From assembly GCA_007376285.1 (NCBI GenBank), contig VMFZ01000001.1:11033-75032 (forward strand): 64,000 nt of DNA. Direction: 5' to 3'. The translations under genes were made by a program, and so were the position numbers. The notes under the pieces are model-generated. The model did not search any database. It saw nothing but the letters and a program-made list of their open reading frames with translations, and had not been told where the DNA came from. The stretch is from Parcubacteria group bacterium Gr01-1014_17 (GTDB lineage: Bacteria > Patescibacteriota > Minisyncoccia > Phycocordibacterales > UBA10002). Below, piece after piece: positions 30,629 through 37,045 of this stretch (the first letter of the stretch is position 1; each line of letters opens with the position of its first letter).

Positions 30629-30699
30629 CTGGGGGACTTGGAATCGAACCAAGATACTGGGCTTCAAAGGCCCATGTCCTACCGTTAGACGATCCCCCA
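30629..30699 (-). tRNA. tRNA-Gln (anticodon UUG)
   Basis: UGGGGGAUCG...anticodon loop CUUUGAA...UUCGAUU T-loop, U1:A72 and G73 as in bacterial tRNA-Gln; close match to E. coli tRNA-Gln. Confidence 0.85.
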
Positions 30700-30713: not shown

Positions 30714-31766
30714 TCATTTATTTTGAGTATCGCAAAGTTTGATGATTGCCAATTCAATGGGAAGGTGTGGAAGGTGCGAGCGGCCGATGAGGTCATAGTA
30801 TTCAAGAAAAGTAAGAAGTGTCTGCGAAGTAAGCCCGCTTGCGGGAATCTTTTTCAGAAACGCAAAGTCGGCTTCGGAAAGTTCGCGCGAGATTTCTTTT
30901 TCCATATCCGGCGCGATGCGCAAGAGAAGCGCGAAGCGCATTTTTTGCAAAATAAGCTTCGCAAACACTTTCATATCGGTATGCGCCTCCGTCGCTTCTA
31001 CGACTGCCGACAACCCATCCTCCGCATTACGTTCAACAAGCGCCGCAATCACGCGGTTCGCAAGCTCACCTTTGGGCGCGCCGGTCACGCGAAGCACTTC
31101 TTCTTCTGAAATCTTTTTATCAGCAGAAATGGAAATTACTTTCTGCAAAATGCCGTACGCATCGCGGAACGAGCCGTCTCCCAAAAGCGCAATGAGTTCT
31201 GCTGACGCATGGCTCATCTCGTACCCTTCTCTCTTTCCGGCGCGGGCGATAATTTCGGCAAGCGTCTTCTGGCTCGGCTTCCGAAACGAGTGTAGCTCAC
31301 AGCGGGAAATAATGGTTTCCGGCACTTTATCAAGCTCGGTTGTTGCAAGAATAAAAACAACATGCGCGGGCGGCTCTTCCAATGTCTTGAGAAGCGCGTT
31401 AAACGCTTCTTTGGTAAGCATGTGCACTTCATCAAGAATGTAGACCTTGTAAGGCGATTCAAACGGAAGCGAGAGCACCGTCTCACGAAGCTCGCGCGCG
31501 TCTTCAATCTTGCGGCTGGACGCCGCGTCAATTTCTTGCAAATCAATATCGGCAGTTTTAAGAGAATGTGCGAGAATTCTTGCGACTGATGTTTTCCCAG
31601 TCCCGCGCGCGCCGGCAAACAGGTACGCGTGCGAAACTCTACCAAGCGCCAAAGCGCCAGTGAGCGCTTCCACTACATGCTCTTGCCCTACCACTTCGTT
31701 CCACTTTTGCGGACGGTATTTCCGATACAGCGCGGAAAATGATTCTTGCTTTTCTTTTGAATTCAT
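30714..31766 (-). CDS. dnaX: DNA polymerase III subunit gamma/tau
   Basis: YRKYRPQKWNEVVGQEHVV..GARGTGKTS Walker A, SRC motif; start at Met45 (ATGAATTCAAAAGAA). Confidence 0.9.
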   Translation of the reverse strand: MNSKEKQESFSALYRKYRPQKWNEVVGQEHVVEALTGALALGRVSHAYLFAGARGTGKTSVARILAHSLKTADIDLQEIDAASSRKIEDARELRETVLSLPFESPYKVYILDEVHMLTKEAFNALLKTLEEPPAHVVFILATTELDKVPETIISRCELHSFRKPSQKTLAEIIARAGKREGYEMSHASAELIALLGDGSFRDAYGILQKVISISADKKISEEEVLRVTGAPKGELANRVIAALVERNAEDGLSAVVEATEAHTDMKVFAKLILQKMRFALLLRIAPDMEKEISRELSEADFAFLKKIPASGLTSQTLLTFLEYYDLIGRSHLPHLPIELAIIKLCDTQNK

Positions 31767-31788
31767 ACAGAAAGAATAACACAGAAAA

Positions 31789-31856
31789 GACACCCGATGT
31801 CTGCCCGCCCGTACCGAATGGTACATTCGGGCGGGCAATTTAGACATCGGGTGTCG
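31789..31856. repeat. 68-bp palindrome ACACCCGATGTCTGCCCGCCCGTACCGAATGGTACATTCGGGCGGGCA..AGACATCGGGTGT in the dnaX upstream region
   Basis: nested inverted repeats read in the sequence. Confidence 0.7.
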
Positions 31857-31945
31857 GATTACCCCAAAACTTGACAGTGTATTTTTTGCATGTATCATCT
31901 GTAGTAGAACAGTAAAATAATATAGAAACGATGCGAAGGAGTATC

Positions 31946-32383
31946 ATGAGTAATCCGTTTGAGAAAATAAAAGAGAAAAACGCACAGTTTCCGCAAATTC
32001 GCAAACAAGCAGAAGCTCGTTATGACGAACTTGTAATGAGTGTGCTCCGCGAACTCCGAAATGCACTTTATCCTCATAGCCCCACAGTATCTAGTCCAGT
32101 AAGTGGGCTTTTGGGAGTTGGAGGGGATGTGGAGGTTTTTTCTGGATGGCACATTTGTGGATATTTTCCCCAACATCCTGACCCGAGCAAGCCGTGGGAG
32201 AACCCTCCCCGCGGTGTCAATACAGGCGTGTCTGTCTCTTTGATTTTTGACTCAAATAATTGCCCAACCAGCTTTTTGTGTACTATTTCGCAAGACTGGT
32301 TCTATGAACCATCAAAAAGTGGGCGGACGCGCGGTCTAACGCGCCACGAGTTGACTGAAGTTCTTGCACGAATGCATTCCTAG
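31946..32383 (+). CDS. hypothetical protein (145 aa)
   Basis: AGGAG Shine-Dalgarno 8 nt upstream of the ATG; Rho-independent terminator follows. Confidence 0.5.
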   Translation: MSNPFEKIKEKNAQFPQIRKQAEARYDELVMSVLRELRNALYPHSPTVSSPVSGLLGVGGDVEVFSGWHICGYFPQHPDPSKPWENPPRGVNTGVSVSLIFDSNNCPTSFLCTISQDWFYEPSKSGRTRGLTRHELTEVLARMHS

Positions 32384-32401
32384 CTGTGTCATTTAAATCT
32401 T

Positions 32402-32440
32402 CCCGCGACTTGAAATATAGTCGCGGGTTTTCTTTTTTTC
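32402..32440 (+). terminator. Rho-independent terminator CCCGCGACTTGAAATATAGTCGCGGG + TTTTCTTTTTTT
   Basis: perfect 8-bp stem plus T-run. Confidence 0.7.
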
Positions 32441-32830
32441 CGCTTTTATACAAACATTTTGCCCTCCTCATCGGCGGGCAAGCAAAATGACTGGATACAC
32501 TATCTTTGGCGGTCGCAAAGTTTAGTGTATATAGAAAGTTCTACCATACTACAAAGTATGAGAGAAGAAATTAGAGCGAACGAAACTCGTTGAGGCGCGC
32601 AGGTTTGCAAACATGGGTAAGGCACGAAGCGAAATGCTTTTTCAAAATGTCTGGAGCGAGTGGTCGCATTGCAGCGACCCGAGCGTTACCGAGGACTTTT
32701 GTAAAAAGCATTTTGCGGAGTGTCTTCCTTTCAATGCGCGCCGAGAAAGAGTTCTAAGAGACACCAGATGTTTGCCATCTATCCCGCCTCATCGGCGGGT
32801 CGCCGAGGAGGAGACAACATCTGGTGTCAA
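32440..32830. repeat. mosaic repeat island A with four modules: ATTTTGCC..GGCAAAAT hairpin (32456-32488), ACACTATCTTTGGCG..AGTGT (32497-32528), AGAGCGAACGAAACTCGTTGAGGCGCGCAGGTTTG (32573-32607), family-H palindrome (32761-32828)
   Basis: modules shared in the same order and orientation with island B (37100-37530) and partly with 59604-59660. Confidence 0.7.
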
Positions 32831-35316
32831 CTATGCAACTCCTCGGGCGAGAGTTCTACGCGCGAGCCGGGGCGGATTTCGCCGCGCAGGATCTTATCAG
32901 CAATCGCGCGCTCTACGCTGTCGTTTATAGCGCGTTGCATCGCGCGCGCGCCGAATTGCGGGTCGGCACCAGCTTCCGCCACAAAATCAACTAACCGTTG
33001 GGTCGGCACAAACATCACGCCGCGCTCGCTCAAGCGCTTCGCAAGTTTCTGGAGCATAAGAACTGCGACCGCGCGCAAGTTCTTGCCCGTAAGCGGTTGG
33101 AACAAAACCACTCCGTCAAAACGGTTCAGAAGCTCCGGCGTAAAGGACCCGCGTTCCACGAGCGCGTCAGTAATACGCTTCTTTTCGTCCGACAAATCAT
33201 TCCCTTGCCGCACCGCGTTCCAGATAAGGTCGCTCCCTGCGTTTGAAGTCGCGATAATTAAAAGATTCCGGCAATTCACGCGCTTGCCAGCAGCGTCCGT
33301 GAAAAACCCTTCGTCAAGCACCTGCAAAAACAAATGCCGGATTTCCACGGTCGTTTTCTCAAACTCATCCAGAAGCAAAACGCCGTAGGGTTTTTCGCGT
33401 AGAAGCGAAGCAAGCACACCCGGCTTCCCCGCCGTAAACGAACCAATGAGCCGTTCGAGCGCATCCGCGGTCTGGTATTCCGATAAATCAAGCCGATGCG
33501 TCGCATCTTCGCTTCCGAAAAATGAGGATGCGAGCGCTTTTGCGGTTTCTGTTTTGCCGACACCAGTCGGGCCCAAAAAGAGGAACGAGCCAAACGGGCG
33601 ATTCGGGTTCGCAATCCCAGAACGCGCGCGGCGCAAAGCCGCCGCGACAGTTGCAAGCGCCTCGTCTTGCCCAACCACGCGCGCGCGAAGCGCGCTTTCA
33701 AGCGTAAGGAGCGTCGCGCGTTCGGATTCCTTAAGCGCCCCGACTGGTACTCCCGTTCGCTTTTCAACCACCGACAAAACATCTGAAGGGAGTACCGCAA
33801 TCCGTTTCGCCTTTTTCACGGCGCTCGCGGCTTCGTACAATACATCAACTGCTTTATCCAAAAGCGATTCGCCCATAAAATATCGCGCGCTTGCTTTCAC
33901 CGCCGCTTCAACTGCCGGAAAGGTGAAAAACAATTTGCTTCCCGCCTCAATCCGCACCGCTTCGTCTTCAAGGTACGGCAACACTGCGCGTTCGTCTGGC
34001 GCCGGTACCAAAATCCGCTCAAAGCGCTTCATCAGTTCCGCATTTGGTTCAATGGTGCGATGAAAAGCGCCGGTCTCCGCAAGCGCAATGAGCTGAATGC
34101 GCGTGGATGCGAGAAACTCGTCCAAAAGGCGCCCAGCATCGCTCCCAAGTGTCGCTGCGCTTTCTAAAAACGCCGGAAAATCCGGAAGCACGACAATCAA
34201 ATTACCCGCCGATTCAATTTCTTTAAACAAACGGAGTAGCTCGCTTTCAAACGCAATTTTTGTCTTTGTTTCTGCGATAAAAGAATTTGTGTCAAAAAGT
34301 ATAAGCCGTTTATGCTCTAATTGCGGAAGCACGGAGCCATCCCGAATGCGTGAGAGAACAAACGCAATGGCAGCTTCGCGCGGAGAACCAGCATCACCCA
34401 CCAAAAGCGCGTTCGCCTCGCGTACGCGAGAAAGCACCGCTTCCGCTTGTTCTCCGGCGCCCGCCGCAAGGAGCGCTTCTGCGGAAGACACGCGCGCAAA
34501 CGCAGGGATTTGCGCAATATCCTTGCCGTAACGCGACAATCGCCACGCCGAGCCGTACGCCCAGTCCTTGCCGATGCCTTGAATCCTCCCCAGCCGTTCG
34601 CGACCCAATGCGCGTGCCCCGCGGCGCATATTTACCAAGCAGCGCTCCACCCACCCAGCTGCTTCGGCTGCGACTCCTGCAGATACGCTCTGTTCAGCAA
34701 GAAAAAGCGCAGCATCTTGGTCAACAGAAAAAATTGCCATTACGATGTCAGAAAGAGAAATGGGCGCGCCGTTCCGCGCTGAAACAGAAAGCGAATCCGA
34801 TGTAAGAGAGTGCCGCGGTTTATTTACAAACGCGCGCACTGCCGCACTGGAAATGCCGAGCCGCAAGAAAATCTGCTTGCCTAAAAAACTCTTGGAAAAG
34901 CTTCTGAATATATCCGCACCGGAAATCTCCGACACTGAAACAGCCGCGTCAAAAGAAATAAGAAGCGGTTCTCTTTTCCAAAACGGTTCGCGGAGCAAGA
35001 GCGGAAACCCGCGGCACGCGGAAGAGTAGTAGCAGGCATTCACAGAAAACAACGCAAGATACAGCGCAAGCGCAATATAAAATAAACCAGGAACGAACTG
35101 GAGCAGTGCGAGAAGTCCTGAGGAAACAGAAAGACGCTCCGCAAACGAGGGGCTCGCGGTGAAGATTGAAAATAGAAGTGCACCGCACAGAAAGATAACA
35201 ACAAGAAAGCCAAGTGAGCGCGCAAGCCGCAACCGTTTCGGCAAGGGCAGAAACCGTTCAATCAAAACCCCCAACTTAAAAACTGAAGTAGATTGTTGTA
35301 GTTCTTGAAATGTCAT
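32827..35316 (-). CDS. membrane-anchored ClpA/ClpB-family AAA+ ATPase with degenerate D1 and intact D2
   Basis: N-terminal about 100 aa with 2 TM helices; D1 keeps only its C-terminal half (no Walker A); D2 has Walker A GPTGVGKT, Walker B LLLDEFEK and a sensor-2 region. Family-H palindromes flank both ends of the gene. Confidence 0.7.
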   Translation of the reverse strand: MTFQELQQSTSVFKLGVLIERFLPLPKRLRLARSLGFLVVIFLCGALLFSIFTASPSFAERLSVSSGLLALLQFVPGLFYIALALYLALFSVNACYYSSACRGFPLLLREPFWKREPLLISFDAAVSVSEISGADIFRSFSKSFLGKQIFLRLGISSAAVRAFVNKPRHSLTSDSLSVSARNGAPISLSDIVMAIFSVDQDAALFLAEQSVSAGVAAEAAGWVERCLVNMRRGARALGRERLGRIQGIGKDWAYGSAWRLSRYGKDIAQIPAFARVSSAEALLAAGAGEQAEAVLSRVREANALLVGDAGSPREAAIAFVLSRIRDGSVLPQLEHKRLILFDTNSFIAETKTKIAFESELLRLFKEIESAGNLIVVLPDFPAFLESAATLGSDAGRLLDEFLASTRIQLIALAETGAFHRTIEPNAELMKRFERILVPAPDERAVLPYLEDEAVRIEAGSKLFFTFPAVEAAVKASARYFMGESLLDKAVDVLYEAASAVKKAKRIAVLPSDVLSVVEKRTGVPVGALKESERATLLTLESALRARVVGQDEALATVAAALRRARSGIANPNRPFGSFLFLGPTGVGKTETAKALASSFFGSEDATHRLDLSEYQTADALERLIGSFTAGKPGVLASLLREKPYGVLLLDEFEKTTVEIRHLFLQVLDEGFFTDAAGKRVNCRNLLIIATSNAGSDLIWNAVRQGNDLSDEKKRITDALVERGSFTPELLNRFDGVVLFQPLTGKNLRAVAVLMLQKLAKRLSERGVMFVPTQRLVDFVAEAGADPQFGARAMQRAINDSVERAIADKILRGEIRPGSRVELSPEELHS

Positions 35317-35327
35317 ATTTATTCTCT

Positions 35328-35396
35328 GGCGCCCGATGTTTGCCGCCTATCCCGCCTCATCGGCGGGTCGCCGAGGAGGAGACAACATCGGGTGCC
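35328..35396. repeat. family-H palindrome immediately upstream of the ClpA/B-like start codon
   Basis: GGCGCCCGATGTTTGCCGCCTATCCCGCCTCATCGGCGGGTCGCCGAGGAGGAGACAACATCGGGTGCC. Confidence 0.7.
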
Positions 35397-35398
35397 TC

Positions 35399-35764
35399 TT
35401 ACAATGCACGGACACCAATAATAATCAGAAACACAATCACGAACGGCAACACGAGCCACAGAAGAAGCACGACAAGCGCGGCTAGAAACGCCGCCGCAAA
35501 TGCGAACGCGGCGAGTGCGAATAGCGCGAGCCGCGCAACAATACCGATGGCGCGCATCGCAGCACCGACAATCATGCGCCCGACAAACGACCCTTGCGCT
35601 TCACCGAGCCGCTTCCACGGCACGAAAAATGAGCGCGCGAGAAGCTCTATGGAAAAGAAATGCCAGAGAAACCAAAAGAGATTTGAAACCGCGCGCGCTA
35701 AATCAACTAGCGCCGCGCTGTAGTGCCACAAAATGTACTGCGGCAAAAAAACAACAAAGTTCAT
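35399..35764 (-). CDS. hypothetical polytopic membrane protein
   Basis: hydrophobic 120-aa product; start set at Met33. Confidence 0.4.
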   Translation of the reverse strand: MNFVVFLPQYILWHYSAALVDLARAVSNLFWFLWHFFSIELLARSFFVPWKRLGEAQGSFVGRMIVGAAMRAIGIVARLALFALAAFAFAAAFLAALVVLLLWLVLPFVIVFLIIIGVRAL

Positions 35765-35786: not shown

Positions 35787-36608
35787 CTACCGGCGCTTAA
35801 ATACAACTTGGTCCTTAAAACGAACATCAAAATACTGGAGCGCTGGTGAGACGGAACCACCAGAGATTTTCAGATTCGCGGCAGCGAGTGTTGCCGGCAG
35901 TTCCAAAAAGAGCTCAGGTGTTTTCTGCGAGAGCACAAAGCGCGCTTCGGCGCTGTCTGCAAGCAAGAGCGCAAAATCATTCCCTTCTGCTCGCACCACT
36001 TTTTTAATTGCCAAACCAACTCTTTCTGCAGAGGAAATAATATTGCGAAGCAGAGCAAACTTCTCGAGCGGTAGGTAGCGCGCACCAGAGTCCGCGCCCC
36101 AACCCTCAAACACAAGACGAGACAGCGGCGGCGCATCGCCTTTTGCCTGCGCAAAACCGAAGCCGCTTTCGTCAATAAAAACGCACTCGCCGGCAGAGGG
36201 GCACCACTCCGCAAATGGCTTCCGTTCCGACACGGCGATAATTACCAGAGCACCGCCCCGCATCGCATCAACTGATGCGATGCGGGGCGAAGTTGATGCG
36301 ACCGCGCCTACAAGCACCGTTCGCGGATAAAGTAATTGGTGAGTAAAAGAAAACAAGCGCACACCGACATCAGTAAACGCGCGCGCAACCGCAGCTTCCG
36401 CGCGAAGTTCCTCCACGCGCGCGGAACTGTTTATGCCGACAATAGTAACTTTTCCAATTTGAAACGGCGTGTAAAACGAAAACAACGACAGACCGAAAAA
36501 GAGTAGCGCGAGCGCGGACATACCGAAAAACGCTCGCCACGCAAATCGTCGCATCTTGCTTGGACGGCGTTTGCGTCGTAACCCCTGCAATTCTGCTCGA
36601 TACGGCAT
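35787..36608 (-). CDS. FtsQ/DivIB-like cell-division protein (TM plus POTRA-like domain)
   Basis: single TM followed by IGKVTIVGINSSARVEELRA POTRA-like segment; start at Met49 (ATGCCGTATCGA). Confidence 0.5.
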   Translation of the reverse strand: MPYRAELQGLRRKRRPSKMRRFAWRAFFGMSALALLFFGLSLFSFYTPFQIGKVTIVGINSSARVEELRAEAAVARAFTDVGVRLFSFTHQLLYPRTVLVGAVASTSPRIASVDAMRGGALVIIAVSERKPFAEWCPSAGECVFIDESGFGFAQAKGDAPPLSRLVFEGWGADSGARYLPLEKFALLRNIISSAERVGLAIKKVVRAEGNDFALLLADSAEARFVLSQKTPELFLELPATLAAANLKISGGSVSPALQYFDVRFKDQVVFKRR

Positions 36609-36703
36609 AGAGATAGTATAATATAAAAATAGGAATACTAACGGACTATGGACATATTTATTATTTCGTGTATTATGATTTCTGGATATAAAGAAAGAAT
36701 TAC

Positions 36704-37045
36704 ATGAAAATACAAAGACCTCCGCGGAAAGAGTTTGTTGAGTATCTTGCATCAGAAAATCCTCAAGACATGGGTATTATCTCTCATGTTGGACTCACGC
36801 GTGAAAAAGCCTGTGAAATTTGTGAGTTGCTTTTACGCGAGGGCGAGTGGATGATTGAAGTCGGGCAACGCAGAGAAAAGTTTCTAGCATGGTTGCTAGA
36901 CAAGAAAACCAATGAAATCGTCTGGGTTACTCCACCGATTTTTGACTCGCGTAATCAAGCGAAAAATTATTTGGAAGAATATACCAGTTGGATACAAAAA
37001 GTATACCTTACAAATTGGGTCGCATCTGGTTGTCCCCGTCCTTGA
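36704..37045 (+). CDS. hypothetical protein (113 aa)
   Basis: ORF followed by terminator AAGCCGTTCGCAAGAACGGCTTTTTCTTTT (37058-37090). Confidence 0.45.
   Translation: MKIQRPPRKEFVEYLASENPQDMGIISHVGLTREKACEICELLLREGEWMIEVGQRREKFLAWLLDKKTNEIVWVTPPIFDSRNQAKNYLEEYTSWIQKVYLTNWVASGCPRP

Follow-up and report, generated by a model that had tools for sequence, protein, structure and literature searches.

The ATPase and its membrane partner

The DNA analysed here is a stretch of 64,000 nucleotides (the window) from contig VMFZ01000001.1 of Parcubacteria group bacterium Gr01-1014_17. Its subject is a pair of adjacent minus-strand genes, one encoding an 829-residue Hsp100/Clp-like protein with two AAA+ modules, D1 and D2 (the ATPase), and the other, directly upstream, a 121-residue membrane protein (the partner). 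Judged from its predicted fold and its D2, the ATPase is a member of the Hsp100/Clp superfamily with an unusual but conserved, lineage-specific architecture and partner. An earlier reading made from the letters alone (the sequence-only reading) had taken it for a ClpA/B-like AAA+ ATPase tethered to the membrane, inactive in D1 and active in D2. That core description held, and the arrangement proved to be conserved in a large family. Coordinates are collected in Table 1.

The open reading frame (ORF) has 829 codons on the minus strand and opens at the first ATG following an in-frame stop, which confirms the extent proposed in the sequence-only reading. All homologues begin at the same MTxxEL N-terminus. 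An upstream start giving a canonical D1, which that reading had named as a possible objection, was rejected on both grounds; D1 is complete in any case. GenBank holds the protein at 100% identity, from the metagenome-assembled genome of the same organism, under the name "Clp protease ATP binding subunit", and public annotations also read "ATP-dependent Clp protease ATP-binding subunit (ClpC)". Pfam matches are AAA_2 at residues 573-734 (E 6.8e-36), ClpB_D2-small at residues 742-821 (E 3.3e-19) and a short match to AAA_lid_9 at residues 467-504. The NCBIfam models for ClpB, ClpA, ClpV, ClpK and ClpG all match, each far under its curated cutoff: 394.2 bits against a cutoff of 1232.1 for TIGR03346 (ClpB equivalog), 333.6 against 993 for TIGR02639 (ClpA), 313.7 against 885 for TIGR03345 (ClpV), and 287-311 bits for ClpK and ClpG. 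The ClpA model aligns end to end with residues 292-822. The AlphaFold2 model of the protein has a predicted local distance difference test score (pLDDT) of 85.1.

D2 was called complete in the sequence-only reading on the strength of its Walker motifs, GPTGVGKT and LLLDEFEK, and the other catalytic residues are also in place (sensor-1 N692, Arg finger R732 and sensor-2 R791, the last in a GAR motif). The Walker A Lys, the Walker B Asp-Glu, the sensor-1 Asn, the Arg finger and the sensor-2 Arg are invariant in all 113 full-length family members compared. The best sequence match is to D2 of ClpB (258 bits to the E. coli protein). The pore-1 loop of D2 is four residues shorter than its canonical counterpart (LIGS----F vs GAPPGYVGY), and HMMER sets Phe627 opposite the pore Tyr.

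D1 had been thought half deleted, with only its C-terminal helical half remaining. This was mistaken: the whole of D1 aligns to ClpA, ClpB and ClpC, and it is the catalytic and pore motifs that have decayed, not the fold. When PDB chains were searched with phmmer, residues 293-502 aligned to residues 192-403 of E. coli ClpB, and residues 265-823 were contiguous with residues 174-734 of ClpA. A 16-member profile matched residues 257-503 to Thermus thermophilus ClpB 151-396, the whole first nucleotide-binding domain, with no large gaps, and residues 253-822 to ClpA 163-734 in a single piece. Foldseek comparison of the AlphaFold2 model gave alignments of about 570-590 columns, covering both AAA modules, to ClpC, ClpB and ClpA chains (target-normalised TM-scores 0.65-0.73), with ClpC chains as the top matches.

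The lack of a D1 Walker A motif had been noted correctly. GDAGSPRE stands where ClpB has GEPGVGKT, IVVLPDFP replaces ILFIDELH at Walker B, and in the pore loop TKTKIAFE replaces AKYRGEFE, with KTK where ClpB has KYR. Across the 113 members the D1 Walker A Lys is kept in 29, a Ser or Thr after it in about five, a canonical Walker A in one, the Walker B Glu in eight and the pore-loop Tyr in none. Mean distance within the family is 0.72 for D1 vs 0.44 for D2; for canonical Hsp100s the values are 0.66 vs 0.57. These motifs point to a D1 in the window protein that is structurally whole and catalytically dead. The family is a natural test of how much D1 can decay, and pore loops vary, in a double-ring unfoldase that still works.

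The N-terminal region of about 100 residues had been read as carrying two transmembrane (TM) segments, and several lines of evidence agree. The Kyte-Doolittle 19-residue means of both hydrophobic segments are above the usual threshold, both segments are kept in 16 of 16 close relatives, and exactly two are found in 104 of the 113 members. AlphaFold2 renders them as long helices (H25-54 and H75-100, pLDDT about 85-91). On average, the 15 residues preceding TM1 contain 3.8 Lys or Arg, vs 1.2 in the connecting loop of about 18 residues. By the positive-inside rule, this bias would fit a topology with the N-terminus in, the loop out and the C-terminal side in.

Between the membrane module and D1 lies a divergent domain of predicted Clp_N fold. 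The Clp_N-like segment of the sequence-only reading was supported by fold comparison, where the matches listed include Plasmodium HSP101 and ClpB, ClpA and ClpC, Hsp104, ClpD, E. coli ClpB, Leishmania Hsp100, SMAX1, ClpT and ClpV. It was not supported by sequence: no Clp_N signal was found by Pfam on the ATPase, by Pfam on 46 N-domains of the family, or by a profile search of the PDB. The linker that follows contains the motif R..W.R..LGR..GIGK.W.YG, basic and aromatic in character. No other part of the N-terminal half is as well conserved, and ClpA, ClpB and ClpC lack an equivalent. Its columns are invariant or near-invariant in the family alignments (profiles A1 and A2), and pLDDT is low at residues 244-253 within it. 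Partner binding, or contact with substrate or membrane, is a possible role.

Accessory features were assessed by aligning the ATPase and five other family members with ClpB-, ClpC- and ClpA-like comparators and with E. coli ClpA and ClpB. The M-domain is absent: about 120-170 residues of the ClpB-like comparators face a gap in the family, and the alignment with ClpA is contiguous. The ClpP-docking helix-loop-helix with its [IVL]G[FL] motif is absent from all six family members; the insertion is present in P0020, P0024 and P0026 and in E. coli ClpA (IGL), and the motif reads RVGFG, MGFSHG or IGFGSG in the ClpC- and ClpA-like comparators. Pfam found no peptidase domain in the ATPase. Because the docking loop, the M-domain required for DnaK coupling and a peptidase domain are all missing, the protein should act autonomously, without ClpP or DnaK. 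Searches of the window by phmmer or BLASTP with E. coli ClpP, ClpX and Lon gave no homologue.

The partner has a conserved N-terminal region, Y..WHY...N..WF...FS..L...F.PWKR, and a C-terminal hydrophobic stretch of about 57 residues (residues 64-121, approximately) that is a probable TM hairpin. It has no Pfam match, its 74 homologues are all annotated as hypothetical without domains, and it occurs once in the window. Homology between the partner and the TM region of the ATPase was considered and rejected (hhalign probability 0.2%). At 35 of 37 loci a partner profile matched an ORF that directly precedes the ATPase gene in the same orientation, and the other two loci begin at contig ends. The pairing extends to ATPases whose N-terminal identity is down to about 22-25%, and there is a 4-nt overlap between partner and ATPase genes in relatives L002 and L006, whose ATPases are 76% and 85% identical to that of the window.

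Two distant members, P0019 and L035, which share 34% identity, carry the partner as an N-terminal fusion to the ATPase. In both it takes the place of the TM hairpin otherwise found in the ATPase, and the upstream region has no separate partner gene. The D1 Walker A of the fused proteins is nearer to canonical (GQPGIGRHT and GDAGIGKM). One fusion comes from a bin labelled "uncultured Gammaproteobacteria", probably a mislabel, and P0019 is the only fusion among the 150 best representatives. The best evidence for the two proteins working as a single machine comes from the pairing together with the fusions, which indicate that the partner is obligate for the ATPase.

Table 1. Features of the ATPase locus and related elements (window positions unless another locus is named; aa, residues of the ATPase)
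Feature	Position	Strand	Basis or remark
Membrane-anchored Hsp100/Clp-like ATPase gene, 829 aa	32827..35316	minus	ORF; Pfam AAA_2, ClpB_D2-small, AAA_lid_9
N-terminal membrane module, aa 1-100	35017..35316	minus	hydropathy, AlphaFold2 helices, charge bias
Amphipathic helix	aa 3-22		precedes TM hairpin
TM1 hydrophobic core, aa 35-53	35158-35214	minus	Kyte-Doolittle 19-residue mean 2.61
TM2 hydrophobic core, aa 74-92	35041-35097	minus	Kyte-Doolittle 19-residue mean 2.12
Divergent domain of predicted Clp_N fold, aa ~120-243	34588..34959	minus	fold comparison only
Family-specific linker motif R235..R239..LGR244..G247..K250.W252.YG255, aa 235-256	34549..34614	minus	between N-domain and D1
D1, complete AAA+ fold, predicted pseudo-ATPase, aa ~257-505	33802..34548	minus	alignments to ClpB and ClpA D1, motif comparison
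D1 Walker A remnant GDAGSPRE	34375-34398	minus
D1 Walker B remnant IVVLPDFP	34174-34197	minus
D2, intact AAA+ module with D2-small, aa ~530-821	32854..33729	minus	Pfam, family conservation, ClpA/B/C comparison
D2 Walker A GPTGVGKT	33550-33573	minus
D2 Walker B LLLDEFEK	33355-33378	minus
Partner gene, 121-aa membrane protein	35399..35764	minus	directly upstream of ATPase gene
Partner-ATPase fusion L035	L035 3650-6109	plus	819-residue ORF; from genome scan
Partner-ATPase fusion P0019	L039 4001-6472
FtsQ/DivIB homologue	35787..36752	minus	22 nt upstream of partner gene; true start probably near 36605
63-nt palindromic repeat	35332..35394		between partner stop and ATPase start; RNA fold -40 kcal/mol, z -3.3
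63-nt palindromic repeat, second copy	32764..32826		abuts ATPase stop codon; RNA fold -38.4 kcal/mol, z -5.1
15-nt core of the repeat	5029, 12685, 32463, 32784, 35352, 37133, 42154, 46664, 50325, 50341, 56879
ORF in spacer	31931-32383	plus	NCBI hypothetical G01um101417_42

A lineage-restricted family and its relatives

To our knowledge and in the literature searched, the bacterial Hsp100/Clp unfoldases described to date are all soluble, and the extraction of membrane proteins in bacteria is credited to FtsH. A profile of the N-terminal 262 residues (A2), seeded by the window protein, was searched against 1.84 billion representative proteins and returned at least 525 clusters (50% identity) at E<=1e-3, of which 163 were at E<=1e-30. 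Most clusters are about 790-860 residues long and match from residue 1, and in most the ORFs are intact at about 800-840 residues. One peptide pattern specific to the family, run against a single genome for each GTDB species, gave 31 loci. Their titles name Parcubacteria/Paceibacterota, Taylor-, Nomura-, Yonath-, Sung- and Berkelbacteria, and the remainder are generic "Patescibacteria" or "Saccharibacteria" bins, three "bacterium" bins and one Gammaproteobacteria-labelled bin. Nearly all the named loci come from the ultra-small bacteria of the Candidate Phyla Radiation (CPR, Patescibacteria), to which the ATPase-partner pair appears to be restricted.

Simple neighbour-joining trees, built separately for D1 and D2, group 36 sampled members in a clade of their own, apart from E. 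coli ClpA and ClpB and 16 other canonical Hsp100s. Monophyly against these 18 proteins, together with scores under every NCBIfam cutoff, argues for a distinct Hsp100/Clp family, and the features of the family (N-terminal module, conserved linker and upstream partner) are all present at the window locus. For this family, the annotation "ATP-dependent Clp protease ATP-binding subunit" probably misleads. The two-gene module offers a function that can be defined and tested for two families now called hypothetical or mislabelled as ClpC.

The domain order, with a predicted Clp_N fold followed by D1, D2 and D2-small, and the lack of a ClpP-docking loop recall ClpB and Hsp104. Unlike these, the ATPase has no coiled-coil M-domain, and hence no DnaK coupling, it has lost the D1 Walker motifs and pore Tyr, its D2 pore loop is shortened, and it carries a TM hairpin at the N-terminus and is paired with an obligate small membrane protein. 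With ClpA and ClpC it shares contiguity from the start of D1 to the C-terminus, without a long M-domain, but it lacks their IGL/VGF ClpP-binding loop and active D1 and is predicted to be membrane-anchored. It differs from ClpV/TssH in scoring under the TIGR03345 cutoff and in having no type VI secretion context; no type VI secretion genes were found among the neighbours of the ATPase gene (ftsQ, serS and dnaX).

Closer parallels in membrane geometry lie outside these groups. In FtsH, too, an N-terminal TM pair tethers the entry face of a hexameric AAA+ ring, and membrane-protein extraction is the function proposed here for the ATPase as well; FtsH, however, is a single classical-clade AAA module with an M41 peptidase, whereas the ATPase is a two-ring Hsp100-clade protein without a peptidase. 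PEX1/PEX6 are type-II AAA+ proteins in which D1 is a non-hydrolysing scaffold and D2 the motor, working with a membrane partner (PEX26/PEX15) to draw proteins off the membrane or out of it. They are eukaryotic, belong to another AAA+ clade and are peripherally recruited, and their likeness to the ATPase is one of function, with no homology beyond the AAA+ fold. Msp1/ATAD1 offer a looser functional likeness in membrane geometry. Skd3 (human CLPB) and the Torsins are derived from an Hsp100 D2 and have a single active ring and an N-terminal hydrophobic membrane association, and Torsins depend on a TM cofactor. Neither has any D1 or Clp_N, and both are eukaryotic organellar or endoplasmic reticulum proteins; Torsins also lack the Arg finger, which is invariant in the ATPase family.

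A precedent for a lineage-restricted class is ClpI of Actinomycetota, a third class of double-ring Clp unfoldases that was defined bioinformatically, has a variable N-domain and includes one sub-class without the LGF loop (PMC10149685). ClpI differs in having intact ATPase modules in both rings and an M-domain, and no membrane anchor is mentioned for it (PMC10149685).

The ATPase-partner pair seems to be undescribed. Neither a membrane-integral bacterial Hsp100 nor this CPR family was described in the literature searched, which included the ClpI report and the CPR protein-family survey; this is not proof of novelty. The two-gene module, a marker for CPR bacteria, has been kept almost universally among the sampled CPR lineages. 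Its retention by bacteria with such tiny genomes suggests that its role is important, and possibly essential, in CPR. A widespread, lineage-specific, membrane-integral Hsp100 would, if real, represent a new solution to membrane proteostasis.

Proposed function and competing explanations

Hsp100 enzymes form hexameric rings that take in substrate at the N-domain/D1 face and release it at D2. We propose that the ATPase, with its partner, is a hexameric unfoldase that is driven by D2, does not depend on ClpP and draws proteins into the cytoplasm from the membrane or its vicinity, a proposal to which we give about an even chance of being correct. Each subunit would be anchored by two N-terminal TM helices, paired as a hairpin whose ends lie on the cytoplasmic side, and the divergent Clp_N-like domain would bind a substrate or adaptor. 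The dead D1 ring would serve as scaffold and assembly platform, leaving the D2 ring as sole motor. The partner would work with the ATPase, probably 1:1, and would add a second TM hairpin and its conserved cytoplasmic N-terminal region. The direction of pulling is proposed because the entry face is the membrane-tethered one: with the N-domain/D1 face held to the membrane, ATP hydrolysis by D2 would thread polypeptides from membrane to cytoplasm, making the complex an extractase or dislocase without a protease. Hexamer, topology, partner complex, threading direction and the nature of the substrate are all inferred in this scheme. In a more specific form that we regard as unlikely, the two proteins would assemble 6:6, their 24 TM helices encircling the axis of an Hsp100 ring, as a bacterial ATP-driven membrane dislocase or retro-translocon of a new class. 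Such an assembly could, besides quality control, move polypeptides inward across the membrane or extract them from it, for instance to recycle envelope, divisome or pilus proteins, or to import exogenous polypeptide in these host-dependent, biosynthetically poor bacteria.

Several observations weigh against this proposal. Classical polypeptide threading by D2 is not guaranteed, because the D2 pore-1 loop is shortened and carries an aromatic residue in only 69 of the 113 members. Nucleotide binding by D1 may persist in some lineages, given that about a quarter of the members keep its Walker A Lys. The TM segments are predicted from hydropathy, charge bias and AlphaFold2 helices rather than by a dedicated topology predictor. 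Clues to the substrate are limited to the membrane location and the frequent ftsQ neighbour, with no further clue.

A possible but doubtful alternative is a membrane-localised, stand-alone disaggregase, autonomous like ClpG, ClpL and ClpK and engaged in general proteostasis, with the anchor merely concentrating it at the cell periphery. The best matches to ClpB D2 and ClpC and the scores of the ClpK and ClpG models agree with such a role, as does the lack of an M-domain and ClpP loop, which means that the protein must act alone; no ClpP, ClpX or Lon accompanies it in the window. Known autonomous disaggregases, however, have two active rings with aromatic pore loops in both, and here D1 is apparently dead and its pore Tyr is missing throughout the family. 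A role on soluble aggregates also leaves the obligate TM partner and the fusions unexplained, and a hexamer with at least 12 TM helices would reach cytosolic aggregates poorly. The order ftsQ-partner-ATPase raises the further idea of a cell-division or envelope-assembly factor that remodels or recycles FtsQ or its partners. The FtsQ/DivIB gene is the immediate upstream neighbour of the pair in the window, a profile and Pfam place ftsQ upstream on the same strand at 19 of 34 loci (directly adjacent where inspected), and elsewhere in bacteria ClpX acts on FtsZ and FtsH on membrane proteins. Yet the synteny may simply be inherited, since the CPR housekeeping genes serS, dnaX, dprA and a dus-like gene recur there too, and ftsQ is not in the neighbourhood at 15 of 34 loci, nor in the fused forms. 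We consider this role quite unlikely; it would be one particular form of the extractase model, not a genuine rival to it.

The public ClpC-type annotation and the alignment of the ClpA model over residues 292-822 would suit an unfoldase that feeds a protease, either ClpP through a non-canonical contact or another membrane protease, in the manner of ClpA/ClpC or of a split FtsH. The absence of the [IVL]G[FL] insertion from all six aligned members, the lack of a peptidase domain in the ATPase and of any noted among the recurring neighbour genes, and the low scores against the ClpA, ClpB and ClpV cutoffs make this highly improbable. The loss of the D1 catalytic motifs and the shortened D2 pore loop might also be taken as signs of a decaying or non-enzymatic relic, or of a mere scaffold. 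The conservation pattern effectively refutes that reading, which has almost no chance of being right: the D2 catalytic residues are invariant across deep divergence, the ORFs are intact in most of the clusters, and the operon structure is conserved.

Neighbouring genes and palindromic repeats

The gene upstream of the partner is a divergent FtsQ/DivIB homologue that may possibly belong to the same operon as the partner and the ATPase. Alone it has no Pfam match, but a profile of its orthologues (A5) matched FtsQ structures (E 2e-6), and 12 of 15 orthologues match POTRA_1 and 8 of 15 match FtsQ_DivIB_C. It has two invariant Cys, C135 and C141 in alignment numbering. Other genes that recur around the pair are serS (17 of 34 loci), a downstream dus-like gene named by reading of its sequence (17 of 34) and dprA (13 of 34); serS and dprA were identified by Pfam in L002. 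In the Taylorbacteria-like clade the ATPase gene is followed by dnaX.

In relatives dnaX lies within about 20-35 nt of the ATPase gene, whereas in the window a spacer of about 1 kb (31767-32826) separates them. The spacer contains the plus-strand ORF G01um101417_42, with one other homologue only in 5.8 billion proteins, a small plus-strand ORF starting at 32613 and a repeat copy at 32455-32478. This segment may have been inserted along with the palindromes. The dnaX ORF (30714-31898, minus) is listed at 394 residues, orthologues have 350, and the true start is probably an internal Met near 31766 (MNSKEKQ...). A tRNA gene (30629-30699, minus) comes after dnaX.

The sequence-only reading had noted palindromes at both ends of the ATPase gene. 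Two 63-nt copies, 94% identical, do flank it, and their 39-nt core is seen twice vs 0 expected; they are not specific to the gene, however. The core hairpin, CCGCC-GATGA-GGCGG, occurs 11 times in the window vs 0.16 expected, with 10 copies on the minus strand. In most cases a second 5-bp hairpin, CGCC-TCTTC-GGCG, comes before it, and the two halves are mutually complementary. The larger 63-nt element with its outer stem accompanies three core copies (12685, 32784 and 35352). At the gathering threshold Rfam reported only three tRNAs in the window and no match to the palindromes. A function as canonical intrinsic terminators was rejected because the hairpins, as read in the sequence, are not followed by a U-tract. 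A part in the biology of the ATPase was likewise rejected: at the orthologous loci of close relatives, with 76-85% protein identity, both the palindromes and the 1-kb spacer are absent. Given this absence and the dispersed copies in the window, the palindromes are a dispersed genome repeat inserted by chance at both gene ends. The repeat looks like a repetitive extragenic palindromic (REP-like) or miniature inverted-repeat transposable element (MITE-like) intergenic family, and the copy between the two cistrons may alter the coupling of partner and ATPase.

GC skew is negative nearly throughout the window. The three tRNA genes, the genes examined near the ATPase and most repeat copies lie on the minus strand, and together the skew and shared strand are consistent with a single replichore with co-oriented genes.

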